This document shows positions 25,137 through 46,254 of a stretch of DNA of 46,279 nucleotides, one piece after another. The stretch is from a virus (taxonomy: Duplodnaviria; Caudoviricetes): positions 1 through 46,279 of the IMG/VR virus record IMGVR_UViG_3300020045_005726. One strand, 5' to 3'. The notes beneath the pieces were generated by a model. The model was not told where the DNA came from, did not search any database, and saw nothing but the letters and a program-made list of their open reading frames with translations. How positions within the stretch are numbered: position 1 is the first letter of the stretch; each line of letters opens with the position of its first letter. A program made the translations under genes and the position numbers.

Positions 25137-25147
25137 AAAAACCCCTG

Positions 25148-25624
25148 TTATGCGGTCTTAACGACACGATTTGTTTTAGTTAGCAGCGCTACGCCTCGAA
25201 AGTATTCGAGTGCTTGCGGCCAGTGATAGCCATCAACAAATCTCAATAGCTTACCTTGGAATTTCTCGCAGTTGGCTTTATGCGGTCGATCATCACAAAG
25301 AAAATCTCCAGCGTCCCCAAGCAACCCCTTATCGTGAGTAACGATTATTCTGCGCTTTAGTTCTGGAATGTTGTCAATGATCCATTTCGCTTTATCACCG
25401 TAGGCATAGTGCACGCCGGTTGGCGGTTTTGTTGCAATCCAAACTTCAAAGCCCATACCTATTAGGCTGCGCACTGCTGAGATTGCGCCTTCAATGGCGG
25501 GCATTGCAGCATAGGCGCCTTCAATCTTTTTTAGCTCATCACCAGTCAATCCGGTCGCCCGCATGTGCGCCTCAAAATCAACGATAACGCCATCCATATC
25601 AACAAACACTCTATCTACCATCAC
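25148..25624 (-). CDS. HAD-family 5'(3')-deoxyribonucleotidase
   Basis: 'FVDMDGVIVDF', 'K..WI', 'K.L..D...L.DDRP..N'. Confidence 0.85.
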   Translation of the reverse strand: MMVDRVFVDMDGVIVDFEAHMRATGLTGDELKKIEGAYAAMPAIEGAISAVRSLIGMGFEVWIATKPPTGVHYAYGDKAKWIIDNIPELKRRIIVTHDKGLLGDAGDFLCDDRPHKANCEKFQGKLLRFVDGYHWPQALEYFRGVALLTKTNRVVKTA

Positions 25625-25648: not shown

Positions 25649-25792
25649 TTATGCAGGTATTTTTGACCCATACTCTATGAGCTGATTAATTTTTTTCTCT
25701 AGACGCAATGCTAGCTCAATTTGCCCAGCCTTTATCGCCTCTCGCATAGCCTCACTAAGCTCTTTTACTGCCTGCTGTGAATCAAGTGGCAT
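25649..25792 (-). CDS. 47-aa protein with UVR-like helical hairpin (not in ORF track)
   Basis: MPLDSQQAVKELSEAMREAIKAGQIELALRLEKKINQLIEYGSKIPA*; AGGAG RBS. Confidence 0.55.
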   Translation of the reverse strand: MPLDSQQAVKELSEAMREAIKAGQIELALRLEKKINQLIEYGSKIPA

Positions 25793-26150: not shown

Positions 26151-26170
26151 CCGCGCAACTTAGGGTGAAA

Positions 26171-26299
26171 AATAAACCCGGAAATATACGGCCTACCCAT
26201 AAAAATCCCGTGCCAGATTTTAAGTTGCTGATTCTGCTAACAAAAAAATATCAACTTTTTGTAGTTTTGCGGGTCGAGCCGTATATTCCGCTGTTAAGT
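26171..26299 (+). other. array-leader recombination site (atypical attC/attI-like)
   Basis: AATAAAC-CCGGA-AATATACGGC...GCCGTATATT-CCGCT-GTTAAGT. Its core GTTAAGT is complemented by the R'' of the first cassette. Confidence 0.6.
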
Positions 26300-26560
26300 A
26301 GCAAGCAGCTCAACCACCAGCCTATTGCTTTTGTGTGTTCTATATGTGAGGCATCCTGCAAAAATTGATCTAATCCCTACTAAGTAATTATCTTGTATCA
26401 GCTTATCCGCATCCGCCTTGCTTATTAATTCTCTCCTTACTGGTCTTCCGTTTTTTAATTCGCACAAATTAAACACCCCACGGCTATCAGTAATAAACAT
26501 GTCCTTGCAAATCTTTGGGGTTTTTGTTCCTTTTCTTAAAGTGGTTTCTACCCATTTCAC
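26294..26560 (-). CDS. cassette 1 hypothetical protein
   Basis: Start reassigned to GTG 26560 (GAGG RBS) inside the cassette; stop TAA lies within core GTTAAGT. Confidence 0.65.
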   Translation of the reverse strand: MKWVETTLRKGTKTPKICKDMFITDSRGVFNLCELKNGRPVRRELISKADADKLIQDNYLVGIRSIFAGCLTYRTHKSNRLVVELLAT

Positions 26561-26572
26561 TTCGCGTACCTC

Positions 26573-26657
26573 ACTTAACAAAGTTATGAAATTGACGGAA
26601 TTTAAGCCGCCGCTCTTTACTACCAATGTGCAGCCGCAATTTATAACGGCGTTACAT
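26573..26657 (+). other. attC site 1
   Basis: ACTTAAC-AAAGT-TAT(G)AAATTG(A)CGG...CCGCAATTTATA-ACGGC-GTTACAT. Confidence 0.85.
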
Positions 26658-27518
26658 TTGGCTCGATAAGTATCTGTCTTCGCATCTAACACACATCATC
26701 AAGTTATCAGTTTCAGGATCGCCATCTCTCGCGAAGTCGCCCGTCTCCCAATCTTTCTTGTGCCCTGCTTCTTTTACTTTTTCCTGAATTGACTCAATAC
26801 GTGCGGCCACTTCTGGGTAAAATATTTTAATCTCAGCAAGTTCGCCTTTCTGCGCAAAAGCACCGCAAAGGCACTCACCGCTCATGCACAAATTATCTTT
26901 AACTGGATTGCGCGGCAAATCCCACTCGCGCATTAAAAGGCGCTGGTCGTCATCGGTAAAGTTCAGCATTGGTGAAACCCAAACCTGCGCGCCATCAACG
27001 TGAACATCTTTAACCGTACCCATTCGGCGTGCAGACTCAGCTTTTCTCACACCAGAAATCAGCATAATTTTATCAAAGCGTTCTTCTTTGTGGTCACGCA
27101 CAAGCCTTCTAACTTGTCGCTGCTTTAGTTTTGAGTACATAAATCTATGCGCAGCGGGGCCGGGGAATCCGTGCTCAATTACAATGTCTTCGTAAATTTG
27201 TGGGTCTGGCGATCCGTCAGCTTTGGTATTCTCCGCTGCGCGGTAAATCAAAAGCGGCCAATTGTTCTTCGCACAAACATCAATCACAAACTGCTGAGTT
27301 TCCGGTATTCCAATGCCCGTATCAATATGCACTACCGCATCAATTTCATCGGGTAGCGCAGCGCAAGCTAAAGCGGTGGCGGTCAGTGAATCGTGCCCAC
27401 CACTAAACAACGCAAAAATGTGTGTTGGCGCGTAATGGTCAATCGCGCAATTAAGTATCGTTCCTGCCTCACAAATTTGTTGAGCTAAACGTATTGAATT
27501 TTCTTCGTCTTTGGTCAT
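26652..27518 (-). CDS. cassette 2: PAPS-reductase-family (PP-loop) protein
   Basis: 'LFSGGHDS', 'HIDTG', 'GVRK.ES.RR', 'SP..N', 'SGECLCGAF'; start ATG 27518 or TTG 27530. Confidence 0.85.
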   Translation of the reverse strand: MTKDEENSIRLAQQICEAGTILNCAIDHYAPTHIFALFSGGHDSLTATALACAALPDEIDAVVHIDTGIGIPETQQFVIDVCAKNNWPLLIYRAAENTKADGSPDPQIYEDIVIEHGFPGPAAHRFMYSKLKQRQVRRLVRDHKEERFDKIMLISGVRKAESARRMGTVKDVHVDGAQVWVSPMLNFTDDDQRLLMREWDLPRNPVKDNLCMSGECLCGAFAQKGELAEIKIFYPEVAARIESIQEKVKEAGHKKDWETGDFARDGDPETDNLMMCVRCEDRYLSSQM

Positions 27519-27531
27519 ATTGCCCGCCAAA

Positions 27532-27616
27532 ATGTAACAAAATTATCAAACGGATGCGGCATAACACCGCGTTTTTAATTACTGTGTACTGCGCACCGTT
27601 TATAACGGCGTTATGT
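27532..27616 (+). other. attC site 2
   Basis: ATGTAAC-AAAAT-TAT(C)AAACGG(A)TGCG...CGCACCGTTTATA-ACGGC-GTTATGT. Confidence 0.9.
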
Positions 27617-27865
27617 GTTCTCTAGCAGGGCTGTCACTTCGGTATAAAGTGGGTTTTCATAAGGGCTGCCAGAATAATTTCCACCAATTCCGCATTTAAT
27701 TAAATCTAGTTTCTTGCGTAGCATTTTTTCAAGCTCGGCGGCTCTTGCGATTGCTTTTTCGCCTTCTTTAATTCTGTGAGCTGCCCATTCCGGTTCAAGT
27801 CTTACCATTTGAAAAATTGTGCGATCTTCACCATCACTGTCTTTGTAAACTCGTGCAGTATTCAT
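27611..27865 (-). CDS. cassette 3 hypothetical protein
   Basis: 84 aa; AGGA RBS; stop within the core site. Confidence 0.75.
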   Translation of the reverse strand: MNTARVYKDSDGEDRTIFQMVRLEPEWAAHRIKEGEKAIARAAELEKMLRKKLDLIKCGIGGNYSGSPYENPLYTEVTALLENT

Positions 27866-27904
27866 GTTTTAATTCCTAAAATTAGTTAATCGCAAGCATC
27901 CGGA

Positions 27905-27964
27905 ACATAACCAGTAGTAGCAACGCGACACCGCAAGCGGTGCGGTTGTACATTGGCGTTATGC
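27905..27964 (+). other. attC site 3 (60 nt)
   Basis: ACATAAC-CAGTA-GTA(G)CAAC(G)CG(A)CACCGC-AA-GCGGTGCGGTTGTAC-ATTGGC-GTTATGC. Confidence 0.9.
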
Positions 27965-28168
27965 TTAGTAGTAATGCCGCTCATGCTGGTCGCCGTTTTC
28001 TTTTGTAAATTTGCATTTTATTGCAGATGGCCCAATCTTGCCTTTCTCAAATTCAGGAGTGTATTCTAAATTTGTACCGTGTTTTGATTCACAATTTTCA
28101 GCGGTTTCAAAATCCGTATGCACGTATAGACATTTCGCGCATTGAAAACCATCTATTTTAATCGGCAT
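27965..28168 (-). CDS. cassette 4 hypothetical protein (CxxC...C...H, possible Zn finger)
   Basis: Start reassigned to ATG 28168 (AGGA RBS). Confidence 0.65.
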   Translation of the reverse strand: MPIKIDGFQCAKCLYVHTDFETAENCESKHGTNLEYTPEFEKGKIGPSAIKCKFTKENGDQHERHYY

Positions 28169-28194
28169 AATCTTGCTTCCTATTGTAGTTGTTT

Positions 28195-28281
28195 GCATAA
28201 CAAGGCGTTACACGCGCGATGCGGGTAGAAATCACCTTGTCGTTATTTGTTAAAAGGCACGCGTGAACATGGGCGTTACAT
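28195..28281 (+). other. attC site 4
   Basis: GCATAAC-AAGGC-GTT(A)CACGCG...CGCGTGAAC-ATGGGC-GTTACAT. Confidence 0.85.
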
Positions 28282-28560
28282 TGCTCTCAGCATTAGTTGT
28301 GCCGCACCATGCGCTTCTTGCGTAGGGGTGCCATCACAAAATTTATAGCGTATGCCTTTTTCACCGCCACAATGACCACTTGCATCAAACGCATCGGCAA
28401 AGGTATATATTCCAGCCTGCTTAATATCGCTTGTGTAGCCAGCTCTATCATTGCCCCACCATCTACACCATTCGTTAGACCAAATCATTACCGTACGGTG
28501 TGCATTTTTAGCAAGCCATGCTCTGCCAGTTTTAGTTTTTAATCGCTCAAGCTTAATCAT
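28276..28560 (-). CDS. cassette 5 hypothetical phage protein
   Basis: AGGAG RBS; 'IWS.E...WW...AGYT.D...AG.Y'; stop within the core. Confidence 0.75.
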   Translation of the reverse strand: MIKLERLKTKTGRAWLAKNAHRTVMIWSNEWCRWWGNDRAGYTSDIKQAGIYTFADAFDASGHCGGEKGIRYKFCDGTPTQEAHGAAQLMLRAM

Positions 28561-28579
28561 AAAATCTCCTGTTCAACCA

Positions 28580-28664
28580 ATGTAACCAGTCGCAGCAACT
28601 GGACGGTTCAAGAATTTCGCACTTTTCCGGCTGTTAAAAGCCGCCGTTGTGCTCAACGTTAGCT
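28580..28664 (+). other. attC site 5
   Basis: ATGTAAC-CAGTC-GCA(G)CAAC(T)GG(A)CGG...CCGCCGTTGTGC-TCAAC-GTTAGCT. Confidence 0.88.
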
Positions 28665-28880
28665 GTTTGCGTGCTCCGAAAAATACAGATCAATTAACCT
28701 ATCATTGCTATCTTTTTCATTCTCACAATATGTTTTTTCAACCCTAAGTCTATCTCCTGATCTATGATTGCACTCTGTACATTCTGTTTCCGCATGCATA
28801 AGTGCTGCGCTAAGTGAGGCTATCTTATTTTCCAGCCTGAATTTCTCTTTAAAAAGCGCCTCTAAAAATTTTTTACTCAT
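28659..28880 (-). CDS. cassette 6 hypothetical protein
   Basis: GGAG RBS; 73 aa; stop within the core. Confidence 0.7.
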   Translation of the reverse strand: MSKKFLEALFKEKFRLENKIASLSAALMHAETECTECNHRSGDRLRVEKTYCENEKDSNDRLIDLYFSEHANS

Positions 28881-28903
28881 AGTCTTTCACTCCGTTAAGT
28901 TTC

Positions 28904-28982
28904 AGCTAACAAGGCGTAGCAACATCACTACACTTCGTTCCGTTCGACACGCTTCGCGTGCGGTTGTACATGGGCGTTACAT
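28904..28982 (+). other. attC site 6
   Basis: AGCTAAC-AAGGC-GTA(G)CAAC...GTTGTAC-ATGGGC-GTTACAT. Confidence 0.85.
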
Positions 28983-29135
28983 TCATTCGGTTGGGCGCTT
29001 TGGCCTATTCGGGAAATACCAATCGCGGTTATCGAATCCGCATTCTGTGCATTCCCATCCAGTGTCCGTTGCACCACCGCACTTAATGCACGGTTGTTCT
29101 TCATCGTCCAACTCTAAAACCGTATCATTTGCCAA
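28983..29135 (-). CDS. cassette 7 small Zn-ribbon protein
   Basis: TTG start after GGAGG; 'CIKCGG..DTGWECTECGFD'. Confidence 0.65.
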   Translation of the reverse strand: MANDTVLELDDEEQPCIKCGGATDTGWECTECGFDNRDWYFPNRPKRPTE

Positions 29136-29155
29136 TTGCGAAACCTCCAAAATAA

Positions 29156-29239
29156 ATGTAACAAAGTTATCAAACGGATGCGGCATAAGTTGCCGCACGT
29201 ATCACTATCTACTGCGCACCGCTTATAACGGCGTTAGGC
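29156..29239 (+). other. attC site 7
   Basis: ATGTAAC-AAAGT-TAT(C)AAACGG(A)TGCG...CGCACCGCTTATA-ACGGC-GTTAGGC; arms nearly identical to attC 2. Confidence 0.9.
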
Positions 29240-29659
29240 TGGCGTTTTACCTATGCTATTAATTAAACTTTTAAGTTCGTTAATATATTCGGTTTGGCTC
29301 CAGCCTTCTATTTCACATATTGTTAAATCAACTAAAATATCATTAAGCAACTTGTGTTTAAATTTTTGCCTTGCAAGGTCATTAACTGTTTTTGCCTGGC
29401 TTGCATCAAAAACAAAACTGCCGCTTGGCTTTGCCTGTTTTACAGTGGCTATTTCCATTTTGGAAACAACCACCAAATCATTAAAAGGTAGGCCTTGCTG
29501 TTGCTGTACAACTCGCAACAAAGCGCGCTCTTGGCCTTTTAAGGGGCTTTTGCAATTTGTTACAAATGCATATCCGCAAAGCGGTGAACCTGCTGTTTTG
29601 TCTATTGCCCATCCTTGCGGTATTTCATCAAGCAGAGGCCAGTTTTTATATGTTTTCAT
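29234..29659 (-). CDS. cassette 8 hypothetical phage protein
   Basis: Likely start ATG 29659 (MKTYKNW); stop within the core. Confidence 0.7.
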   Translation of the reverse strand: MKTYKNWPLLDEIPQGWAIDKTAGSPLCGYAFVTNCKSPLKGQERALLRVVQQQQGLPFNDLVVVSKMEIATVKQAKPSGSFVFDASQAKTVNDLARQKFKHKLLNDILVDLTICEIEGWSQTEYINELKSLINSIGKTPA

Positions 29660-29677
29660 ATCGCACCAAAACAAAAA

Positions 29678-29810
29678 GCCTAACAAGGCGTTGCAGCATC
29701 ACTTCGCTGCGCTACGTTGGACAGTCTTTAAGTCGCCTTTTTATGGTTTGCTTCGCAAAGTATTCCATAAAAATTCGCCTTAAATCCTGCCGCTGAACTT
29801 AACGTTACAT
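29678..29810 (+). other. attC site 8 (133 nt)
   Basis: GCCTAAC-AAGGC-GTT(G)CAGC...GCTGAAC-TTAAC-GTTACAT, with a long internal hairpin (TTTTTATGG...CCATAAAAA). Confidence 0.85.
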
Positions 29811-29836
29811 GCTGCCTGTGAGAGCGCAGCAGTTAA

Positions 29837-30154
29837 CTATTTGTCTTTTAGTAAATCACCGTTTACCTCAAGTCTTGTGCGGTTTAGCTCGCGTACCGTT
29901 TCAATAACATCACTGGCATAAAATACTTCTTCTCGCGTGTAATTTGTTTTGTACTCGCGGTTAATAATATCTTTCTTGTAGTCGGCGGCAATATATCCGT
30001 AAGCCAAAAAGCAGTAAAAGAAAAGGCCAATAAATCCCAAAACAACAAATACTGGGCAGAAAAGTTCGTGGAATGCAGAGCACCAAACATCTTTTTGTGC
30101 GCAGTAAGCCGCGATTAAGGTAACTGCAATAATGGCTATCAAAATTAAAATCAT
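29837..30154 (-). CDS. cassette 9 membrane protein
   Basis: Two TM segments; GAGG RBS before ATG 30154. Confidence 0.7.
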   Translation of the reverse strand: MILILIAIIAVTLIAAYCAQKDVWCSAFHELFCPVFVVLGFIGLFFYCFLAYGYIAADYKKDIINREYKTNYTREEVFYASDVIETVRELNRTRLEVNGDLLKDK

Positions 30155-30194
30155 GGTAAAACCTCTCACTTGGTTAAATTAAACCTGCTACAAC

Positions 30195-30278
30195 ATGTAA
30201 CAAGTCACTCAAAGCGACTGTCCAGAAATTTGCGTTTTTATCACTTGTTAAACGCAGCGCTTTAGCTAAACGTTACAC
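30195..30278 (+). other. attC site 9
   Basis: ATGTAAC-AAGTC-ACT(C)AAAGCG(A)CTG...CAGCGCTTTAGC-TAAAC-GTTACAC. Confidence 0.9.
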
Positions 30279-30282
30279 GCAA

Positions 30283-30489
30283 TCACAGCTCAACGCTAAG
30301 CGCATTAACGATTGCCTGTACGCACAGCTTACACGGCTGCACAGAACCCCCAGCTGCAAGCGCCGCATGCTGCGCGTCTTGAAAATGCCACTCATGGCGC
30401 TGGATTGTGTGGCCGCACCATGCAGTAGGTCTTGGCAACTCTATGCCATTATCGTGCGTGTATTTAATAACGTGTCGCGCTTCGCTCAC
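30283..30489 (-). CDS. hypothetical protein
   Basis: 68 aa; H/C residues 'WCG...HA...C..C'. Confidence 0.65.
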   Translation of the reverse strand: MSEARHVIKYTHDNGIELPRPTAWCGHTIQRHEWHFQDAQHAALAAGGSVQPCKLCVQAIVNALSVEL

Positions 30490-32234: not shown

Positions 32235-33152
32235 TCAGGAATCTAAAAGGGTATCATCTTCGCCGCCATAGGCAGCCAATAGCGCTTTGATAAAGTTGCT
32301 CAGCTCAAGGCCCATGATTGCAAAATCGGCGTCGAACTGTTCGGCCTTACTTTCGGGGTTGCGGTCGTTGGCCTTATCGCTGATTGAATCCTCGAATCTC
32401 AGGCGCTTAATGGCGACCTGATCATCAATAATGCAGGTTATGGCCTCTTTCCAAACCAGTTCGATTTTGCTTGCGTGCATACCACTTTCAAGGTGGTTAA
32501 GTATTTCGCTGGCGGTAAGGTCCTGGCGCTTCGCACGGATCACGCGGCCATCTTTGGCGGCCTGCAGCTCTACCTCATCACCCAATTCAAACTGGTGCGG
32601 CGCTTGGCTTTCGTATAGCCAATTGGTCATAACTTGGGTAGGGATATTCTTTGGCGCAATAGGAATGCACCGAAGCGACCCCAGCGCCTCGCGCAGCTTG
32701 CTGAGTAAATCCTCTGCGCGCTTGGCTGATGAGGTATTCACCACAATCATCTTGCTATCAGGATCAATGTAGGCATAGGTTAGCGTTGATCGCGTGAAGG
32801 CGCGTGGAAGCAGCGAAAAGATAATTTCGTCCTTCAGTGTGTCGCGTTCTTTGCGGCCAACAGGGCGAGACTCAGCTTCATTGATCGCCAATATTTTGGC
32901 TTCTAGCTGCTCCTTGATAACACCACCAGGGAGTATTTTTTCCTGCTTCTTGGCGCATATCATGATACGACCATTGGTAACGTGAACAAACTCAGTGCCG
33001 TGGCGCCCAAGAGGCTCAGTAAAGCCGTAGCGCATAGGGTCAAGGCTTCCGCATTCGTTGAATTTAAATTCGGCCAGCTTAGCGGCCAAATCCTCCGGCG
33101 ATATCGCCCATGCTTCGGTCAATCGGTAAAGCCTTGCATTGTTAAACCACAT
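32235..33152 (-). CDS. rdgC: recombination-associated protein RdgC
   Basis: 'MWFNNARLYRL', 'EKILP..VIK', 'LLPRAF', 'SAKRAEDLLS.LR.ALGSL', 'FDADF.IM..EL'. Confidence 0.95.
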   Translation of the reverse strand: MWFNNARLYRLTEAWAISPEDLAAKLAEFKFNECGSLDPMRYGFTEPLGRHGTEFVHVTNGRIMICAKKQEKILPGGVIKEQLEAKILAINEAESRPVGRKERDTLKDEIIFSLLPRAFTRSTLTYAYIDPDSKMIVVNTSSAKRAEDLLSKLREALGSLRCIPIAPKNIPTQVMTNWLYESQAPHQFELGDEVELQAAKDGRVIRAKRQDLTASEILNHLESGMHASKIELVWKEAITCIIDDQVAIKRLRFEDSISDKANDRNPESKAEQFDADFAIMGLELSNFIKALLAAYGGEDDTLLDS

Positions 33153-34885: not shown

Positions 34886-35142
34886 TCAACCCCTATGCAA
34901 TTCTCAAAAAACCGGTGCCTGCAATGCGCGAGCGCCGTAGCGTGATCAATCTCGGCCTCATCAATAAACGTGCAGTGCTTGCCATTGGCGAAAGTTACTC
35001 GCCAATAGCGCTTTAGCTCTGGTTTAGGCGTTTTTGATTTGGAGGCACTTGTGCTGTCCATCAAAAATACTCTTGGTGATGATTGCGGCCAGTGCTGGGG
35101 CAAGGCCGTTGACGGTTTCAAAGTCGCGCTGCACTTGCTCAA
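34882..35142 (-). CDS. hypothetical protein
   Basis: Coupled to the downstream ORF; true start probably ATG 35061. Confidence 0.5.
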   Translation of the reverse strand: MSKCSATLKPSTALPQHWPQSSPRVFLMDSTSASKSKTPKPELKRYWRVTFANGKHCTFIDEAEIDHATALAHCRHRFFENCIGVE

Positions 35143-36754
35143 GCGTGGTTAGAGCCTTGGCTGCCAAAGGCTCAAGGAAGGTGCTTTGCTGAGGTTTTGA
35201 TATAGCTCCGCCTCCCGATCCGCCACCGCCATAAACAATCTTCGGCTCTATCGTTACAGGCTCTTGCGCTGGCGCTTCCGGCTCTGCCTGCTTAGCTGCC
35301 TGCTGCTGGTTAAATTCCTCAGCTGCAACCCGGTCGGATTCTTGCTTATCAAGCACAGCCTGTGCCGCGTCATCCGCCTCCTTCTGCTTGCGGATTTTTT
35401 CATTAGCCAGTACCTCAGCCGCATCGTCAATGCGCTTTTTCTCGGCTGCATCATGATCGGCTATGCGCTGCTTGCAAATTGCCTCCAGCGCCTCGCTATC
35501 CTTGACCACAAGCTGCTGCTTATCGGCGAATAGAAATAAATGCTTTTCGCCAATAGTGTTAATGATGGCAATATTCTTTTCCAGAATTGCAGTCAATCTA
35601 TCGCATTCAATTTTTTCATTTGCAATTGCCGTATTAAGATCGGACCGCATATTATCAAATGAGCTTTTACCCTTAATTACCAAGCTAAAATCAGGCATGG
35701 CATAGGGGTATTTTATTGGCGATAGCTTTGCATCAATAAGCTGCACATGGGATGCCAGCGCATTTTTTGCAGTAAGAACCAGTTCGGCTTTAAGTGATGT
35801 ATTTCTGGTGTCAATTTGATTTTTTTCGGTAGTGCGCGCCTTTTTAATAAATTCCTTAATTGAATTAAGGTCTTTTACAAAGGTATCGGCGTCGCCCATT
35901 TCGCCCATTACGCGCGCGACAAGGCTATCAATATTTGACTCGGCAGTCGTATAGCTTTTGATCCTAGTCTTTGCGTTTTCAAAATCCTGATCCGTAGTTA
36001 GCGGTATCTTTGATTTTTCCACTAACTCCATTGCCTTGGATTTAAATTCTGCAAGGTTGCTGGTGATTGAAATTCCTTTATCGAAAGTAAGGTCATAGAT
36101 AATTTCAGGCAATGACATAACCGGTTCGGCTATTGGCTTTGGCGCCTCCGGCTCGGTTTGCGCATAGCTATCCAGGTCGATAGAAAATTGTTTCCAGCCG
36201 CTAATAATTCTATCGCGTAAAGCGGTATCAGATTCATACCAAAGCGTTACCGGCTGCTCGCTTGAATCGGTGCCGAGCGATCCACGAAACAACCCTTTAA
36301 TCGCGCCTGAGCAAATCAATTGCTGTTCAAGTTGGATTCGATAAACCAAAGGAATTTCACCAGATGCACCAGCAGCGCGGATAGCCTTATTCAGCGTCTT
36401 GTGTTCGTAGATTATTTCCTCATCCATTGTCCAGCCATCGAGAGAGGCGGACAAGCGCAAGCCATCAAATTCAACCGACACCGTTGCAGGGAATAATTCT
36501 TGCCCAATCACTTCCTCGGCAAGCGGTCTATCCTGCTGCTCGTATCGGTGCCCGGCGTCGAATAGCTCTTGGGTGCGAGCATCAACATCAGGACGCAAAC
36601 CGGTAGCCATTTCGCGGAGCAATTCATCGCGGCTTTTGTATGGGCTTTCTCCCAGCATTGCCGGTGCATCACTGGCGTTAAATTGTTTTGGTATGGCGCG
36701 GTATGCGTGCCACTCTGGCGAGCCTTGTACTAGGTTATGGATTTCACGCTTCAT
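35024..36754 (-). CDS. YqaJ-like viral recombination exonuclease with long C-terminal extension
   Basis: 'QGSPEW..YR', 'ASDAPAMLG.SPYKSR', 'GH..E', 'ASLDG', 'EHK', 'Y..Q..QQL'. Confidence 0.9.
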   Translation of the reverse strand: MKREIHNLVQGSPEWHAYRAIPKQFNASDAPAMLGESPYKSRDELLREMATGLRPDVDARTQELFDAGHRYEQQDRPLAEEVIGQELFPATVSVEFDGLRLSASLDGWTMDEEIIYEHKTLNKAIRAAGASGEIPLVYRIQLEQQLICSGAIKGLFRGSLGTDSSEQPVTLWYESDTALRDRIISGWKQFSIDLDSYAQTEPEAPKPIAEPVMSLPEIIYDLTFDKGISITSNLAEFKSKAMELVEKSKIPLTTDQDFENAKTRIKSYTTAESNIDSLVARVMGEMGDADTFVKDLNSIKEFIKKARTTEKNQIDTRNTSLKAELVLTAKNALASHVQLIDAKLSPIKYPYAMPDFSLVIKGKSSFDNMRSDLNTAIANEKIECDRLTAILEKNIAIINTIGEKHLFLFADKQQLVVKDSEALEAICKQRIADHDAAEKKRIDDAAEVLANEKIRKQKEADDAAQAVLDKQESDRVAAEEFNQQQAAKQAEPEAPAQEPVTIEPKIVYGGGGSGGGAISKPQQSTFLEPLAAKALTTLEQVQRDFETVNGLAPALAAIITKSIFDGQHKCLQIKNA

Positions 36755-37637
36755 CGACTAATTCCCCTTCAATGGCAGGCTTAACCGCATTGATAGCATC
36801 AATTTGGCTTTGGCTTAATGTGTATTTAGAGCTGATTTTTGCAATTACCTGCTCTGGTGTGTTTTTGCCTGATTGAATTCCGTTTTTATAAGTCGGGAAA
36901 TTGGAATTAAATTTTGCATCTTCCATCGGCGGCAATGAATCCGGTTTTGCTGCATCCGCTGGTGATGGATTAATTACCTTTTCAGGCTGATCATCGTCCG
37001 CCAATTCATCGGCGGAATAAACGCCGAGAATCACATCAGGGCAGTTAAGTCTCGCCCATTTTTTTGTAGCAAGGTAGGCAATTTGCTGCTTAGGGTCTTC
37101 CGCCCAAAGTGTTGAATTGCGGGTTCTTACTTGGGTAAGCTTCAGGGTTAACTCGGTTGGCTCATCATCGCCGCGAAGTGTTGCCGTAACGGTAACACTA
37201 AGGCCAATTTCATCGTTAATATTCCAATTTGGCACGCGGAATTTAACGGGATTACCAGCGTCATCCTTTTTGGTTTTGCTTTCCAATTCCTTCATGTTGC
37301 CGAGAATCTTGTCCCAGTTTCCATCCCAGCGAAATTTTAGACGGCCTTTCGTTACGCCAGACGACTCAATAACCGCGTTAACAAGCTGCGCCTCATATCC
37401 CAAAACGCCATTGACTACATGGGTTTTTTGAGCCACTACAAACGGGTTCATTTGCCACTGCATGGCCTGCAATATAACGGCAAAGCAGTCGGCGGGATTA
37501 CCCTGGAAGTGCTTAGGCGTTTGAACCTTTCCGCTCGCCATGAGATTGGCAAGCCTGTCCATAGTCTCAAAAGACTGCGCCGAAAAAATCAGGTCACTGC
37601 CACGAACATGGCCGACCTCCTTAGATGTTTCGCTCAT
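36744..37637 (-). CDS. recT: RecT-family single-strand annealing protein
   Basis: 'P.HFQGNPADC.AV..QA.QW.MNPF.VAQKTH.VNG.LGYEAQLVNAV', 'RNS.LW..DPKQQ.AY'. Confidence 0.9.
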   Translation of the reverse strand: MSETSKEVGHVRGSDLIFSAQSFETMDRLANLMASGKVQTPKHFQGNPADCFAVILQAMQWQMNPFVVAQKTHVVNGVLGYEAQLVNAVIESSGVTKGRLKFRWDGNWDKILGNMKELESKTKKDDAGNPVKFRVPNWNINDEIGLSVTVTATLRGDDEPTELTLKLTQVRTRNSTLWAEDPKQQIAYLATKKWARLNCPDVILGVYSADELADDDQPEKVINPSPADAAKPDSLPPMEDAKFNSNFPTYKNGIQSGKNTPEQVIAKISSKYTLSQSQIDAINAVKPAIEGELVDEA

Positions 37638-40589: not shown

Positions 40590-41038
40590 ATTGATTTAAC
40601 CGTAGCTGTGAATTTGGTGTGTAGGTAGAATTTCTTGTTCTTGTGATCGCCCGGCACCGCTGCGAATTCCATATTTTTGGCCATGTAAAACGCATCGCGA
40701 ACATTGCGGAACTTCTCGCCCATCGGGTAAATAATTCCGCGATAGTTAAACCGGTGAAATTCGCTATGCTCTTTCTCGACGTTTTCGCGGTTCGGCATGC
40801 GGTAAATATTTTCTATTTCTACGAACCAGTTAAACGATAGGCTGGCGAACTGCGATACATCGGCCAATCCATGGCGGCGCAATAACAAATCAGCATTGGC
40901 ATTTGTCTTGGTATCGAAATAGTAATTGATCAGCATATCGTCAGACATGCTTAAAGGCTCGGCATCTCTCCACGTAACGACCGACCCTATGAGAAATTTT
41001 TTAATTCTTGGCGGAAGGTTTAGAGCGCGCATGTTCAA
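40586..41038 (-). CDS. hypothetical protein
   Basis: 150 aa; GGAGG RBS; coupled to the MTase. Confidence 0.7.
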   Translation of the reverse strand: MNMRALNLPPRIKKFLIGSVVTWRDAEPLSMSDDMLINYYFDTKTNANADLLLRRHGLADVSQFASLSFNWFVEIENIYRMPNRENVEKEHSEFHRFNYRGIIYPMGEKFRNVRDAFYMAKNMEFAAVPGDHKNKKFYLHTKFTATVKSI

Positions 41039-41769
41039 AATAGCGCCTCCTGTGCGGTGCGTAGAATTACATTCTCGACTGCAGCATCAAACATATTCGG
41101 ATCAAGCTCGGTACCACAGAACTCAGCAAAACCAAAATAGTGCGCGGCTATGGCTGATGATGCGCTGCCGGAGTGTGAATCAAACACCCGGTAATCTTTC
41201 CGGCCGTAATTCAAATATATCCAGTCATACAGTGCTTTTGGCTTTTGTGTGGGGTGAATTCGCTTCTCATTCTTGCGAACATCGCCGCCCATGCTTCCCT
41301 GATGCATGCCATTCAATGTGTATTTGAATATTACGGCCGGAACTTGGAAGCTAGTCCAAGCAAGCTCATAATCATTGAATGAGCTGGCGCCGTTGTCCTT
41401 ATCCCAAACTATCCAGCCAGGATTATTATCCATCCATTCGTAAATCTCATCGCCGCGCGGAGTCTTGAACGGTTCGCCGATGAAATCGTAATAATTTGCG
41501 CCCCAGATAATTTGGTTTTCAGTGATGCGTTTTAATTCTTGAAAGTAATGCTCATCTGGTACCGACCATATAGGAAGGCTGTCGTAATGTTTTGAGCGTT
41601 TAACCCCGAGACTCGAATAACCCTTTCCATAGTAACCGGACTTATTTGGTCCGTTAAAATATGGCGGATCAACCACGCCAAGATTAAATTTTTTATCCGG
41701 TACCTTGCTCATAAATTCCATACAGTCGCATTGGAGCAAGGTTATATTTCCTTGTTTAAATTCTTTCAT
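41035..41769 (-). CDS. N6/N4 DNA methyltransferase (beta class)
   Basis: 'VDPPY', 'IIWGANY', 'IHPTQKP..LY', 'FDSHSGSASS'; start reassigned to ATG 41769. Confidence 0.9.
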   Translation of the reverse strand: MKEFKQGNITLLQCDCMEFMSKVPDKKFNLGVVDPPYFNGPNKSGYYGKGYSSLGVKRSKHYDSLPIWSVPDEHYFQELKRITENQIIWGANYYDFIGEPFKTPRGDEIYEWMDNNPGWIVWDKDNGASSFNDYELAWTSFQVPAVIFKYTLNGMHQGSMGGDVRKNEKRIHPTQKPKALYDWIYLNYGRKDYRVFDSHSGSASSAIAAHYFGFAEFCGTELDPNMFDAAVENVILRTAQEALF

Positions 41770-41773
41770 GGTT

Positions 41774-42121
41774 TTATTTCCCGTAACTTGCAATAGCTTG
41801 AATAATTTCTAAGGGTATTTCTACAGGGTAAATTTCTACATGTTTTAACCATAGTTCGGATTGACTTCCGTATAGGCTTTCAAATTCCGATTTGCGATTA
41901 TGGAATAACCAATGCTCTTGCGTGGTTAGCGGAATGCAAAACCAGTGACCGATATGCACCCGCTTTACGCCGACATAGGTTTTAGTGCTTGACCCGACAC
42001 AATGATGAACCTCTACGCCGTAAGCTCCAGATACAATGCTGGGCTGCTCTTTGCTCCACGATAGGAATTCTCGCTCGGATATATTTATATTTCTGCTTTG
42101 CGGTGATGATTTCTTTTGCAT
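41774..42121 (-). CDS. His/Cys-motif nuclease-like protein (Ref/DUF968-like)
   Basis: 'EVHH...', 'H...IPL...H....H....FE..YG.Q.EL'. Confidence 0.55.
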   Translation of the reverse strand: MQKKSSPQSRNINISEREFLSWSKEQPSIVSGAYGVEVHHCVGSSTKTYVGVKRVHIGHWFCIPLTTQEHWLFHNRKSEFESLYGSQSELWLKHVEIYPVEIPLEIIQAIASYGK

Positions 42122-42624
42122 TATTGTTGCGCCTCACGATAATTTTGATAACACTCTAAAGCCTTCTCTGACCACTTAACGCCAGCCGCCGAACCAGTCG
42201 CATAAAGGAATTCAATAAAATCCCCGGTATCGCGCTTGCTCCACTCGGTGGTGCTTGGCCTAATGCTTATCTGCTGCCCAGTGATTGGGCAAAGGAAATT
42301 GCGTGGCGGCTTTGCCAATGGCTCACCAGCGATGGCGCGCTCATTCGCAAACCAAATCACCAGCAAGGCCTTGCACTGCTCAATATCGTAATCCGCCATC
42401 ACGATACGGCGGCCAGGGATAGCGATTACAGCCTGCTCGTGAATATCCCCTATCATCGCGTGGATCTTCTTGTTCTGATCGCTGTTGCGAACTGGCGCAG
42501 GCCTTCCCACGCTAATCTCAACCGGCCCAGCCTCCAAGCCTTTGCAGATCATACCGTCAAGCCAGTTAAGGGCTTTGTTAACCTGGGCCAATTCGTGGAC
42601 TTGTTTAACGATTTTATCGGTCAT
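42121..42624 (-). CDS. NinB-like recombination protein
   Basis: 'R..DQN.KIHAMIGDI..Q', 'ST...SK.....FIEFLYA.G...GV.WS'. Confidence 0.75.
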   Translation of the reverse strand: MTDKIVKQVHELAQVNKALNWLDGMICKGLEAGPVEISVGRPAPVRNSDQNKKIHAMIGDIHEQAVIAIPGRRIVMADYDIEQCKALLVIWFANERAIAGEPLAKPPRNFLCPITGQQISIRPSTTEWSKRDTGDFIEFLYATGSAAGVKWSEKALECYQNYREAQQ

Positions 42625-43600
42625 GGATTGACTCTAAGTAACTTTCGATGAAGATTTGCGCTTGGTAAGCATTGATCGCGTTTCCGTAGGCGCGCAATCG
42701 TCCCACTCGATTGGCAACCCCATTAGCCAGCGGGAATGCGCCGGATTCAACTGGCCGCCATTTTCCATCCCTGCAGTGGAGCCAATCAGCAGTTGACCAG
42801 AGGCCGTTAACCGGGCCGGGCAATAATTCAGGTCGATCGATTCGTAAGGCGGTGCTGATGCTATTAGGTAGGGCGCATCCTTCAGGTCCTGCCGCCAGCT
42901 CCCGTCCTGCATCGGGTCGCGGTTGCCGTCCTTCTTGAATCTCGGCGCTCTCACGCCCGCACCCGCATCGAATGCCTGCGGAGTCGGCCATCCGCACACG
43001 CCCACCATCATGCTCAATTCCACCGATTTTCCTATTCTCGCTCTTCGCTGAATAGCTGGACTGTCCCAGCTCCCCCTGTCCCGGTTGTCCGCTGCGCAAG
43101 GAGTGAGCCGCCCAATAAGACCTGTCTCTGATGTGCGGCGCACCGACGCTCGCAGACGGAAACGGGACACACCCGAAGGCGTAACCCATGGCTTCCAAGT
43201 CAGCGTGTACAAGGTCGATCCAAGCATCTGCGTCTTTGCTTGCAACCTGCTCTCCAAGGACTTCTGAAGGCTTGCACTGCTGGATGAGCCATTGGAAGTG
43301 AGGCCATAGGTGCCGCTCATCATCAAACCCATTTCCTTTGCCTGCCGAGCTGAAAGGCTGGCATGGGCAGCTTCCGGTCCATACGGGTTTATCGTCTGGC
43401 CAACCGGCTTGGCGGAGTGCATAGCTCCATACTCCGACTCCTGCGAAAAAGTGGCACTGGGTATATCCCAAAAGCTCATCTGGACTAACATCAACTATGC
43501 TCCGTTCGTCAACAATGCCAGGTGCTATGTGCCCAGCTTCGATTAGGTTTCTTATCCACTGCGCGGCGTATGGATCAATCTCGTTGTAGTAGGCTGTCAT
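42614..43600 (-). CDS. C5 cytosine DNA methyltransferase (main frame)
   Basis: 'HFFAGVG.W', '[11 protein letters not shown]', 'EQV', 'PHIRDR', C-terminal 'RLRAYGNAI'. Confidence 0.9.
42634..43494 (-). CDS. overlapping alternative-frame partner of the C5 MTase (carries motif IX)
   Basis: 286-codon open frame on the same strand with 'WPTP' and '[17 protein letters not shown]'; true start uncertain. Confidence 0.7.
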
Positions 43601-45124: not shown

Positions 45125-45477
45125 TACGCTCTCACCCTTATGCGCATTTTCTTTGCGAATGAATACTTCTTGCCGCTATTGTTTTTAATCTTCTTGGTCA
45201 TTTCGTGGGTTTTAATCTGATCAGCCCACTGATACCAATCTCCGTTAAAATCTTCGCTTTTCGCCATTTTGAATAGGGCGCGGTTAATGAGGAAATAAAT
45301 ATCCCGCAACCCAGTCTTAAGCGAGTAAAGGCCGCGTTTCTGCGCTCGCTGGGCGAAAATAATAATCATCTGAGGGTTACGCATAGCTTCCCTGTAAATC
45401 AGGGTTACATAGAGCGTACGGGCGCGCCGTAGGTTTTTTCCCTCAAGGGTGAATTTCTTACGCGATTGCTCAAGCAT
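45124..45477 (-). CDS. hypothetical basic protein
   Basis: 117 aa, coupled at both ends. Confidence 0.65.
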   Translation of the reverse strand: MLEQSRKKFTLEGKNLRRARTLYVTLIYREAMRNPQMIIIFAQRAQKRGLYSLKTGLRDIYFLINRALFKMAKSEDFNGDWYQWADQIKTHEMTKKIKNNSGKKYSFAKKMRIRVRA

Positions 45478-46150
45478 GGTGCTTTAACCATAGTTCAGAA
45501 ATCCACTGAATCCCTTTAGGCGTAAACTTTGCCGCCGTATAGTTATGATCGTTGTCGCTAGTGCCCGTTGATGTGTGAAATCGCCCCAGCACGATATGGC
45601 AGCCGTAAGGCACCCAATCGCCGCCCAGCTTGTACATTATTTTTTGTTCGCTAAGGAATGCGCGGAATTGAGTTTCGTTTGCCTTTAGCAGCTTGCACAC
45701 TTGACGAAAGCCCAAGTTACCGGTGGATTGCACGTATCGCTCTACAAACTCCACAGCGGGCTTGGCGATCTCTACATAGTGGATTGCCTTAAGTTCAGAT
45801 TCTTTAGCGTCAGCCCATGCGCGCGCGGCGGCAACAGGGTTATTGAAATCAGGGATTGATAAATTATTTCGTAATTCAAGCTCTTGCCAGCGGTCAACAA
45901 GTGCGGCGGTAAACTCGGGCGATAGCCTGGCAATGATTACCAAGCTGTCACGCTTGTCGCTCAAAAATTCGGGATATTGCTGATTGTTTTGCGGGTTAGT
46001 CCAGTTTGATAGTGTCGTATTTTTTAGGACACCCCCATCTATCAAGGTGCTGATCAATTTCAAAGTGTTGTCGTGTCGCTTATCAGCAAGTTTTGATAGC
46101 TCACGGCTTGACATTGTTAATGCGGCTTTGCTTTGAATAACTTGAAGCAT
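45470..46150 (-). CDS. Rha-family / antirepressor (ANT C-terminal) protein
   Basis: 'TMSSREL..L..KRHDN', 'FTAALVDRWQELE', 'ARAWAD', 'P.V.FV..YV', 'FTPKG..W'; start reassigned to ATG 46150. Confidence 0.85.
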   Translation of the reverse strand: MLQVIQSKAALTMSSRELSKLADKRHDNTLKLISTLIDGGVLKNTTLSNWTNPQNNQQYPEFLSDKRDSLVIIARLSPEFTAALVDRWQELELRNNLSIPDFNNPVAAARAWADAKESELKAIHYVEIAKPAVEFVERYVQSTGNLGFRQVCKLLKANETQFRAFLSEQKIMYKLGGDWVPYGCHIVLGRFHTSTGTSDNDHNYTAAKFTPKGIQWISELWLKHHA

Positions 46151-46169
46151 AAATTTACCCCATAAAAAA

Positions 46170-46254
46170 ACCGTTTGTAGAAGCTGGGTGGTGATCCTTG
46201 TTCGCACATGGGAGAGAAAGCCCACGAACAAGAAAGCCAGCTTTTACAAACGGT
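46170..46254. ncRNA. long nested hairpin in the leader of the Rha/ant gene
   Basis: ACCGTTTGTAGAAGCTGG/CCAGCTTTTACAAACGGT, inner CTTGTTCG/CGAACAAG, apical TGGG/CCCA. Confidence 0.5.

Follow-up and report, generated by a model that had tools for sequence, protein, structure and literature searches.

The early operon of a phage of the class Caudoviricetes likely carries an integron without an integrase. Its left end is an attI-like site, behind which stand nine cassettes, each bounded by attC and each holding a single gene that lies antisense to its sites; the host's integron integrase (IntI) is the probable enzyme in trans. The window, as we call the whole 46,279-nt stretch analysed, is IMG/VR record IMGVR_UViG_3300020045_005726, which is linear and 90% complete according to CheckV. 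As far as sequence can tell, the window and its counterparts combine attC anatomy, an attI-like end, an exact chain of cores, mobility of a gene together with its right-hand attC, and breaks at G^TT; the antisense layout recurs across unrelated phages.

A preliminary description had read this region as an array of nine attC cassettes in a phage lacking an integrase. A host-trained attC model, the core chain and a PF00589 search confirm and extend that reading, and the attC family, the G^TT breakpoints and the frequency of IntI in the host genus support it. It was nevertheless incomplete: it did not notice that the genes run antisense or that an attI-like site is present, and it did not cover the host, how widely such arrays occur, or the swapping of attC bodies and ORFs inside fixed frames.

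Anatomy of the attC sites

All nine hairpins were located at the starts first given for them, on the + strand: attC 1 (26573-26657, 85 nt, 41.6 bits under the covariance model described below, bottom-strand pfold 0.18), attC 2 (27532-27616, 85 nt, 40.6 bits), attC 3 (27905-27964, 60 nt, 32.1 bits), attC 4 (28195-28281, 87 nt, 38.2 bits), attC 5 (28580-28664, 85 nt, 45.5 bits), attC 6 (28904-28982, 79 nt, 41.1 bits), attC 7 (29156-29239, 84 nt, 45.8 bits), attC 8 (29678-29810, 133 nt, 66 bits) and attC 9 (30195-30278, 84 nt, 40 bits). Each of the nine has the attC palindrome with extrahelical bases, in the layout R''-5 nt-L''(8 nt) ... L'(7 nt)-5/6 nt-R', and the unpaired base reported on the + strand arm is indeed present, as an extra base at position 4 of L''. 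L-box mismatches, where present, are A.C on the + strand, that is, G.T on the - strand, and therefore the + strand is the attC top strand. With nine neighbouring sites within 3.7 kb (a CALIN requires at least two) and no intI nearby in the window, the expectation of a CALIN on the + strand held for the strand; the array is not a bare CALIN, however, since an attI-like site stands at its left end.

Our detector gave 11 hits in the window, nine of them clustered (score 17-20) and two scattered and weaker (15.5 and 16), whereas 20 Markov simulations gave a background of 0.6 hits per 46 kb. A covariance model trained exclusively on 32 host (Cellvibrio) chromosomal attC bottom strands recovered all nine sites at 32-66 bits, with the next best hit at 12.3. 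The long attC 8 belongs to a host chromosomal family of 130-140 nt and is 93-94% identical to sites in G013, G027 and G038, while phage attC are mostly 80-89 nt (348/416). These comparisons support assigning the window sites to the attC of the Cellvibrio chromosomal-integron family.

The claimed chain of 7-nt cores, in which each R'' is complementary to the upstream R' so that each unit is bounded by G^TT, is exact in 9/9 cassettes (permutation P = 6.6e-5). It is exact in 283 of 337 phage cassettes, compared with a permutation mean of 45 and maximum of 66, and in 132 of 164 host cassettes. The departure of several cores from GTTRRRY proves normal for this host, as only 43/148 host and 60/317 phage cores fit that consensus.

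Folding estimates for the window gave a bottom-strand pfold above 0.1 in five of the nine sites and below 0.02 in the other four; the bottom strand folds better than the top in seven sites and the top better in two. The asymmetry between strands is weaker in phage than in host sites (mean -0.8 versus -4.6 kcal/mol), and pfold exceeds 0.1 in 29% of phage sites versus 80% of host sites.

An attI-like site at the left end

The attI-like entry site spans 26248-26299 (+), with a predicted crossover G^TT between 26293 and 26294; the first G^TT of the array (26293) is part of it. It ranks first among the 1486 GTT sites of the window (40.2 vs 10.9) when the matrix comes from 38 other phage array ends, and only fourth of 1486 with a host-only matrix from 15 attI sites. 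Among 14 relatives, the host-only matrix gives its top rank to the left end of the array in eight. The site resembles the attI adjoining host intI; by sequence likeness, the array's 5' end has an attI. An attI-like end is retained in 41/88 arrays, the motif having been drawn from those same ends.

A direct-repeat copy of the motif lies upstream at 26167-26214 (+), without the GTT core. It has the second-best score (20.9) of 92,462 positions under a 40-nt core-less phage attI matrix, and several further phage attI regions show a comparable copy; the window copy is a candidate accessory integrase site or decayed second attI. A weak scan matched no promoter-like sequence near the window attI. At the other end, a few bases separate the last G^TT, that of attC 9, from the stop of a resident early-operon gene (30283-30489, -; phrog_4090) whose 5' end has no matching R'', and 29 of 50 arrays stop at a core that coincides with the stop codon of a resident gene.

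Antisense genes and their spread among phages

The ORFs of an integron are expected to lie on the top strand of attC and to be transcribed from a Pc promoter at attI. The window departs from this: its ORFs are all on the - strand (9/9), antisense to attC and co-directional with the phage early operon. Phage cassettes generally share this polarity (302 reverse, 14 forward and 1 none; n=317), whereas host cassettes are mostly forward (124 forward, 23 reverse and 1 none; n=148). When the ORF was required to cover at least 65%, the counts were 269 reverse and 6 forward for phage versus 93 forward and 6 reverse for host, and a ribosome-binding site with a start codon was found on the reverse strand in 227/317 phage cassettes and on the forward strand in 65/148 host cassettes. 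By array majority, 74 of the 78 arrays with three or more sites (window array included) are reverse, four are tied and none is forward.

The layout recurs, at the sequence level, in 78 arrays in largely unrelated phages. Fourteen array-bearing phage sequences have 0-4 proteins in common with the window, and no attC was found in 15 terminase relatives, positive controls being detected. The 351 phage cassette segments are nearly all without known function, and cassettes are shorter in phages than in the host (median 262 vs 454 nt). No whole cassette was found in common between the host (n=164) and phage (n=337) sets; only attC bodies are common to both.

Cassette genes and neighbouring functions

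The preliminary description placed one ORF between each pair of sites, which is borne out, and cassette 1 (26293-26579) also has one, of about 88 aa (26294-26560), with no assigned function and a stop codon inside the attI core; a contig piece in run X1 spans 26303-26592. All window ORFs that follow are likewise on the - strand. Cassette 2 (ORF 26652-27518) encodes a 288-aa PAPS-reductase-domain protein (PF01507, E 5e-12; phrog_424); it recurs at 94.7% in array L219, flanked by different neighbours, and its ORF has a 48% homolog in L294 with no attC nearby. The 84-aa ORF of cassette 3 (27611-27865) had no match in PHROG, Pfam, NCBIfam or PADLOC. Cassette 4 (27965-28168, 67 aa) carries a leader of a six-member family common to unrelated ORFs. 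Cassette 5 (28276-28560, 94 aa) has four relatives only in the protein database and directly follows an attI variant in one low-depth contig of run X1. The leader of cassette 6 (28659-28880, 73 aa) is carried by two unrelated ORFs. The zinc-ribbon-like product of cassette 7 (28983-29150, 50-55 aa, start uncertain) has weak Pfam zinc-ribbon matches below cut-off, and 94-96% identical copies of this cassette occur in L003 and L071 with other left and right attC bodies. Cassette 8 (29234-29659, 141 aa) has Atlas matches below 0.8, to be taken as leads only, and a contig piece of run X7 (29232-29686) terminates at both of its cores.

Cassette 9 has a 105-aa ORF with a hydrophobic N-terminus (29837-30154), between a trailer of core plus small hairpin (29804-29836) and a leader running from the core to the ribosome-binding site (30155-30201), all on the - strand. 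The trailer is common to unrelated ORFs, the leader to at least eight unrelated ORF families, and the cassette 9 frame holds eight such families. Joints skipping about 320 nt between this trailer and leader were present in all four runs examined. The shared frame hints at a route of new cassette formation. Identical leaders on unrelated ORFs occur in 67 of 351 phage cassettes and 0 of 148 host cassettes, and 23 of 291 cassette proteins correspond to phage genes found both free and in cassettes.

Integrase and likely host

The report that no tyrosine recombinase is visible in the window was upheld: PF00589 gave no match even at E<=1, PHROG and Pfam scans showed no integrase, and no linked intI is present, in a record that is 90% complete. 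Host IntI gave no tblastn hit against the phage loci. Any tyrosine recombinase at all was found in 3 of 42 array-bearing viral records, none of them IntI, and two complete, terminal-repeat array-bearing genomes had no PF00589 match. No small Xer-type recombinase was found beside the array, with no PF00589 in the window or in 39/42 array-bearing records.

The host of the window phage is likely Cellvibrio, on the basis of sequence likeness and MAG binning. One clue is an rdgC-like gene (32235-33152, -; PHROG label 'exonuclease recombination-associated'); in a comparison within the genus only, most of 64 genomes have a gene with 64-76% nucleotide identity to it, and 62/64 have some match. An intI had been anticipated in the predicted host, and IntI above the curated cut-off is present in 41 of those 64 genomes, with a LexA-type box just upstream of intI in 6/8 loci checked. 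We infer that host IntI probably rearranges the array in trans.

Cassette movement and breakpoints

If IntI acts on these arrays, related phages should differ at G^TT, and cassettes do recur in new neighbourhoods with breakpoints there and the right-hand attC kept. In 12 cassette pairs at least 97% identical, the right attC only was retained in six, the left only in none, both in four and neither in two (background 1%). These near-identical cassettes have dissimilar left neighbours and break at G^TT; movement with the right-hand attC is as IntI predicts. In none of 50 binned pairs did the left attC alone travel with the gene.

Of 38 pairs at 70-97% identity, 32 had kept neither attC, a result that simple IntI shuffling leaves unexplained. 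The raised identity that follows R'' continues through the 5-nt spacer (the pairs are not independent), a poor fit to a clean cut at AA^C. A decayed cassette also occurs outside any array (L001 vs L071 cassette 4).

Proposed mechanism and alternatives

We propose that SOS-regulated host IntI would excise phage cassettes during infection through bottom-strand attC x attC recombination, and that circles from the same or a co-infecting phage would be inserted by it at the phage attI; SOS control of the integron integrase is described in PMC8946536, and the bottom-strand preference and lagging-strand effect in PMC5371416. Because the genes are reversed, the phage's leftward early transcription would read them, incoming cassettes would join the array at its promoter-distal end, and the recombinogenic bottom strand would be the one that codes. 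A host-type cassette in the phage attI would lie antisense to phage transcription, and a phage cassette in the host attI antisense to Pc, so that one enzyme would serve two mutually silent pools. Host integron arrays are described as rich in anti-phage genes, and a recent view treats integrons as arsenals against phages (bioRxiv 10.1101/2024.07.02.601686). Exchange between the two pools and a benefit of silencing are offered as a proposal, with no whole cassette common to the two sets. On a slower time scale, the ORF within a fixed leader/trailer frame, or the attC body between R'' and R', would be replaced, likely via phage RecET-type short-homology recombination or rare top-strand IntI events, and new cassettes would form from ordinary phage genes. 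The RecE-like and RecT-like genes of the window (35024-37637, -; phrog_7655 and phrog_561) are candidate machinery for such swaps.

These same genes invite an explanation independent of IntI, in which a single capture from a host integron brought in attI and attC, and these now act only as fossil patches of short homology for RecET/Red-type recombination and replication slippage. Exchange of attC bodies and ORFs at points other than G^TT, the poor folding of several sites and the decayed cassette fit this account. We nonetheless consider it unlikely, as cassettes that are nearly identical have unlike left neighbours, part from them at G^TT and retain the right attC 6:0, the L''/L' arms have stayed complementary and many sequence families preserve the extra base, the core chain is exact in 283/337, and 41/88 arrays have an attI-like end (by a motif from those ends).

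Rather less probable is that another recombinase uses the sites, be it a Xer-like host enzyme, a satellite's or one encoded in the unsequenced 10%, or that the strand called top is the one used. The three records of 42 with a non-IntI tyrosine recombinase and the weak strand asymmetry lean this way; against it, sites and attI match those adjoining bona fide intI in the host genus, the two complete genomes lack PF00589, and use of the top strand predicts a left attC travelling alone with its gene, as seen in none of the 50 binned pairs. That the hairpins are RNA-level elements of the early transcript (processing sites, attenuators or conserved gene-boundary repeats), with attC likeness secondary, we regard as very improbable. 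Every gene boundary within an operon segment does have a hairpin, and in most cassettes the core overlaps a stop codon (111/199 at offset 1), but the 32-66 bits from a host-trained attC model, one site 94% identical to a chromosomal attC, and a core chain, attI end and G^TT breakpoints that have no RNA rationale all oppose it, and a terminator scan showed no excess over shuffles. The hairpins may have an additional RNA role besides that of attC.

We suggest, tentatively, that unrelated Cellvibrio phages run a parallel, phage-only integron on host IntI, insulated from the host pool by reversed polarity, and form cassettes de novo by start-to-stop ORF replacement in a fixed core-leader-trailer frame and by attC-body exchange at R''. 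How cassettes arise de novo is, according to PMC5371416, largely unknown. If the suggestion is true, it supplies a concrete, testable route; the frames shared by unrelated ORFs, together with the genes that occur free as well as inside cassettes, make the question of cassette origin directly testable. Reversed polarity is a simple rule for telling cassettes of phages from those of hosts, and it may reveal 'bacterial' CALINs in metagenomes that have been mis-assigned. The phage cassette genes are candidates for counter-defence or host-takeover functions.

Comparison with known systems

Integrons are regarded as devices by which bacteria capture genes. The phages described here seem to bring an attI and cassette arrays of their own for the host enzyme to act on, a hitchhiker platform across unrelated lineages, and many unrelated phages likely borrow the host integrase to reshuffle their own pool of small genes. 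The sedentary chromosomal integrons of Cellvibrio share with the phage arrays the same attC family ends, core usage, attI types and exact core chain. They differ in that they include intI, their ORFs run forward, most of their attC measure 110-140 nt and their median cassette is 454 nt; in the phage arrays intI is absent, the ORFs are reversed, most attC measure 80-89 nt and the median cassette is 262 nt. The two have no cassettes in common.

Phage mosaicism can arise by exchange at conserved gene-boundary sequences. Here too, whole ORFs are swapped between conserved flanks, but an integron cassette supplies these flanks, in the form of its R boxes and leader, and each swap would therefore yield a new IntI substrate.

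Cassettes are also described as integrating at non-att secondary sites, attG (bioRxiv 10.1101/2022.09.11.507474), which may account for array right ends at resident stop codons (29/50). Unlike the attG case as described there, insertion here would be into a dedicated attI, giving long ordered arrays.

Phage CALINs have already been published, with 17 in 10,705 genomes, and 5 of 6 tested phage attC recombined with IntI1 (PMC9892861, 2023); the Shewanella M16-3 prophage CALIN in that account has its own attI. In MW202573, our detector gave one weak site only. Like the window, the published CALINs are attC clusters without intI in phage genomes. TJE1, the one published phage CALIN we checked, has three attC with ORFs on the attC top strand, that is, in sense, whereas the window is antisense. 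Relative to the CALINs as that paper describes them, the window combines an attI with nine cassettes, all antisense, within one site family that extends over 78 arrays, and its cassettes bear phage-type cargo and shared leader frames.

The window array and its attC sites

The array is real and exceeds the account given of it in a preliminary description. It lies in a linear record (G000) of 46,279 b, 90% complete, in which a rightward half holds head, tail and lysis genes and a leftward early half holds replication genes, methyltransferases and RecE/RecT-like genes. The nine attC-shaped hairpins first reported, at 26573, 27532, 27905, 28195, 28580, 28904, 29156, 29678 and 30195, are all present. 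Every site pairs an 8-nt L'', in which position 4 on the + strand is a single extra base, with a complementary 7-nt L'; L-box mismatches, where present, are A.C on the + strand, that is, G.T on the - strand. Because of these mismatches and the extra base, we assign the attC top strand to the + strand. For the same reason we rejected a canonical array read on the - strand, a reading also contradicted by the fact that the left attC alone never moves with the gene.

When a covariance model was trained exclusively on chromosomal attC sites (32, from loci adjoining host intI genes), it recovered 9/9 window sites at 32-66 bits, the best other window match reaching 12.3, and Markov simulations gave 0.6 scattered detector matches per genome length. 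The exact R'/R'' core chain that had been described holds in 9/9 window cassettes (permutation P 6.6e-5). Cores departing from GTTRRRY were considered as something special and rejected, such cores being normal in the host. Since unconstrained MFE folding gave the attC fold for some sites only, strand folding was measured by constrained pfold. PHROG, Pfam and PF00589 scans found no integrase in the 90% complete record, and promoter and terminator scans of the window showed no excess, with matches at or below shuffle level.

Antisense cassette ORFs

Although the sites and the chain were correctly described, the polarity of the ORFs and an attI-like site had been overlooked. All nine cassette ORFs (about 88 aa in the first cassette) lie on the - strand, antisense to attC, so that the window cassettes mirror normal ones in polarity and point the same way as the phage operon. 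The ORFs start 10-40 nt after the R'' core; their stops lie inside the R' core in 6/9, just past it in 2/9 and 33 nt in for one.

Eight of the nine ORFs had no PHROG, Pfam or NCBIfam match; the Pfam scan covered the cassette 1 ORF only within a longer frame, and elsewhere the cut-off was not reached. PADLOC gave only PAPS-domain cross-matches and one weak NucC match (E 0.005), and Atlas searches on the cargo gave leads only, with scores at or under 0.85.

An attI-like left end

At the first G^TT (26293) the upstream sequence is a motif instead of an attC (attI-like site, 26248-26299). Many other arrays begin on the left with the same motif, which resembles the attI adjoining intI in the host genus. 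Locus L227 was left out of the attI matrix. Under a matrix built from 38 other phage array ends, this site ranks first among 1486 GTT sites; under one built from 15 host attI sites it ranks fourth, and the array end ranked first in 8/14 relatives. A second copy of the motif, lacking a core, lies 81 nt upstream.

The R''-spacer-L'' ends of attC 2 and attC 7 (27538 and 29162, - strand) also have attI-like scores under both matrices. Such an R'' end, when double-stranded, might serve as an attI in reverse, and attC bodies could perhaps be swapped in this way. To the left of the attI-like site, two genes end in a cassette-type GTTATGC core (25147-25153 and 25650-25656), and the junctions near them have a short motif in common following the stop codon; these genes may be remnants of eroded cassettes.

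Genes move with their right-hand attC

As the core chain alone cannot assign an attC to a gene, we compared cassettes that occur more than once. Among 12 pairs at least 97% identical, the right attC only was kept in six, both in four, neither in two and the left only in none (background 1%). The identical stretch opens at G^TT and closes a few bases past the next G^TT, consistent with the breakpoints that had been predicted. Judged from these comparisons, the gene with its right-hand attC is the canonical bottom-strand unit. Cassettes 2 and 7 of the window recur in other arrays beside different neighbours. Public sequencing runs contained at most 0.11 of the window words, with no RNA run among those listed; contigs of other phages from four runs have breaks at cores, and one low-depth contig among them joins an attI variant directly to cassette 5, which is weak evidence.

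Another 38 pairs at 70-97% identity are not explained by this simple picture: 32/38 keep neither attC, so that attC bodies turn over faster than genes. (One of 51 pairs fell below the 70% bin; locus L338 was excluded as too short.) The switch from one attC to another falls between R'' and L'', and identity is still raised across the spacer, though the pairs are not independent. Clean AA^C cuts were rejected as the origin of the swaps, identity continuing into the spacer. Candidate routes would be rare top-strand IntI events or short-homology recombination; the weak bottom/top strand asymmetry of phage attC sites is compatible with the former.

Arrays in unrelated phages

Pattern scans of viral, metagenome and genome collections yielded 88 distinct arrays including that of the window, along with 337 distinct cassettes; at least three sites are present in 78 of the arrays. 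The metagenome contigs were often short, and we took them for phage on the strength of the common layout. A false two-site array (L014) and an ordinary forward bacterial array (L100) were left out of the phage counts. The chain is exact in 283/337 cassettes (permutation maximum 66). In 317 cassettes with at most one core mismatch, the longer ORF is reversed in 302, forward in 14 and neither in one; 74/78 arrays are majority-reverse and none is majority-forward. These orientation counts, and those for the host, omit 20/337 phage and 16/164 host cassettes with at least two core mismatches, mostly missed internal sites. A rise in chain mismatches with distance from attI was rejected, there being no trend.

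Fourteen larger array-bearing sequences, which form several unrelated groups, have 0-4 proteins in common with the window, and none of 15 terminase relatives of the window phage carries attC. For both reasons the array appears to follow the host rather than the phage lineage. No close relative of the window phage was found, the best rdgC-like match in the viral collection being 41% and the best terminase 72%. Apart from short chance matches, all that turned up in the annotated phage collection was a 90-nt attC match in Shewanella M16-3.

Three phage records (G079, G080 and G077) have two separate arrays apiece. At array right ends, the next upstream gene has its stop codon within the last core in 29/50 scorable arrays (of 78), and this bordering gene is without a matching R'' in 34/46; arrays may have been seeded at stop codons, or the oldest attC may have been lost.

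Integrons of the likely host

In the genome collection, the scan matched three contigs whose titles name Cellvibrio, a further one from a genome of that genus and, elsewhere, a single ordinary forward array. An intI gene in the predicted host, which the preliminary description had proposed to look for, was found: 41/64 genomes of the genus encode an IntI above the TIGR02249 cut-off, and a LexA-type box lies upstream of intI in 6/8 loci checked. Sites in G013, G027 and G038 match window attC 8 at 93-94% identity; G027 is a contig of 1.8 Mb whose cassettes are forward, and the tiny contig G013:C22 may itself be phage. The window rdgC-like gene has up to 76% identity to a genus gene, in a comparison made within the genus alone. 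Host cassettes, counted without loci L237 and L246, are forward in 124/148 (93 forward vs 6 reverse under a strict rule) and are longer than phage cassettes; the two sets have no ORF in common. Tyrosine recombinases occur in 3/42 array-bearing viral records and IntI in 0/42.

A phage-like contig binned in a Cellvibrio MAG (L096, G006:C54) has eight attC sites and an attI nearly identical to the chromosomal attI of L160 and L173. One host array (L158, G020) repeats a block of several cassettes, and 49/148 host cassettes are without a dominant ORF.

Unrelated ORFs in shared cassette frames

Defining a leader match as at least 25 of 30 nt and an unrelated interior as one with no blastn or tblastx match at E 1e-3, we found that 67/351 phage cassette segments share their 30-nt leader with a cassette of unrelated interior, vs 0/148 host cassettes; the phage set rarefied to 148 averaged 20 such segments and never gave fewer than 9. 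The stretch in common runs up to the start codon (median -2; 5-95%, -9 to +6). Window cassette 9 has a frame (29804-30201), made up of a leader and a trailer 18-20 nt after the stop, that encloses 14 ORFs in 8 unrelated groups; the leaders of cassettes 4 and 6 are of other families. Homologs without attC within 400 nt exist for 23/291 cassette proteins, the window's NT5C-like gene among them. In our reading, phage mosaic exchange would drop whole ORFs into existing frames, and fresh substrates for IntI would arise in this way. Short ORFs that diverge very fast could also leave unrelated interiors, but this is less likely and is disfavoured by the near-identical flanks. Phage-type frames in host integrons were rejected: the commonest leader occurs in 3/64 genomes, once on a phage-type contig and twice without attC.

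In the window, the 5'-nucleotidase-like gene (NT5C; 25148-25624) stands free, and at L001 7897-8522 it lies inside a complete cassette (89% aa); identity breaks off close to the ORF ends, which would fit conversion of a free gene into a cassette, or the reverse. Outside the array of L001, at about 3900-4300, the cassette 9 frame recurs around the ORF of L071 cassette 4 (100% aa); having lost its left core, and with a decayed attC, this copy is a de-cassetted relic. The ORF of the cassette 9 frame lies between two internal direct repeats, GTTAA, and a 7-nt stretch of the trailer is complementary to the ribosome-binding region; either a nested insertion or RNA pairing may be involved. Homologs of one of the window DNA methyltransferases (41035-41793; the other is at 42614-43600) are cassettes in L074 and L201 (38-40% aa).

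A proposed mechanism and its alternatives

We consider it probable that host IntI, SOS-induced during infection, excises and inserts phage cassettes in trans. SOS control of IntI is among the points made in PMC8946536. Host IntI in trans had been proposed before; the cassette unit and the presence of IntI in the genus support it, and from these we infer, with good confidence, the trans action itself. That the array is an IntI-independent fossil is unlikely. Action of a different recombinase on the sites is more improbable still, and hairpins acting as RNA-level repeats are the least likely of the three.

Given host IntI acting in trans, reversed ORFs would let the phage operon express the cassettes and would make the coding strand the recombinogenic strand. 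PMC5371416 includes the statement that this strand recombines better on the lagging template, and a lagging-template benefit for phage cassettes is our conjecture. With genes reversed, a host cassette in a phage would also be silent, as would a phage cassette in the host, and mutual silencing of the two pools might be a benefit. No captured host cassette was found in the phage arrays, with one plausible forward ORF in 317. We propose, tentatively and with some doubt, an integron pool confined to phages, in which new cassettes are also made.

That forward ORF, the sole one with a ribosome-binding site, is in L112 cassette 1 (379 nt), where it is convergent with a reverse ORF; the 133-nt attC is almost identical to window attC 8. 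The window also encodes an anti-repressor, Ant (45470-46231), and no repressor or integrase was found in the 90% complete record; conceivably, Ant might relieve LexA repression of host intI.

Comparison with known systems

Phage-borne attC clusters are already known: the results of Qi et al. (2023) include 17 phage CALINs and recombination of phage attC sites with IntI1 (PMC9892861). In their example TJE1 the ORFs are sense to attC, whereas the window ORFs are antisense. Our literature search, with subscription journals and bioRxiv supplements beyond its reach, returned no antisense attI-bearing phage arrays and no shared cassette frames. The window array differs from an integron in two features, having no linked intI and no sense ORFs under Pc. 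It is a CALIN by definition, yet its sequence suggests that it works like an integron.
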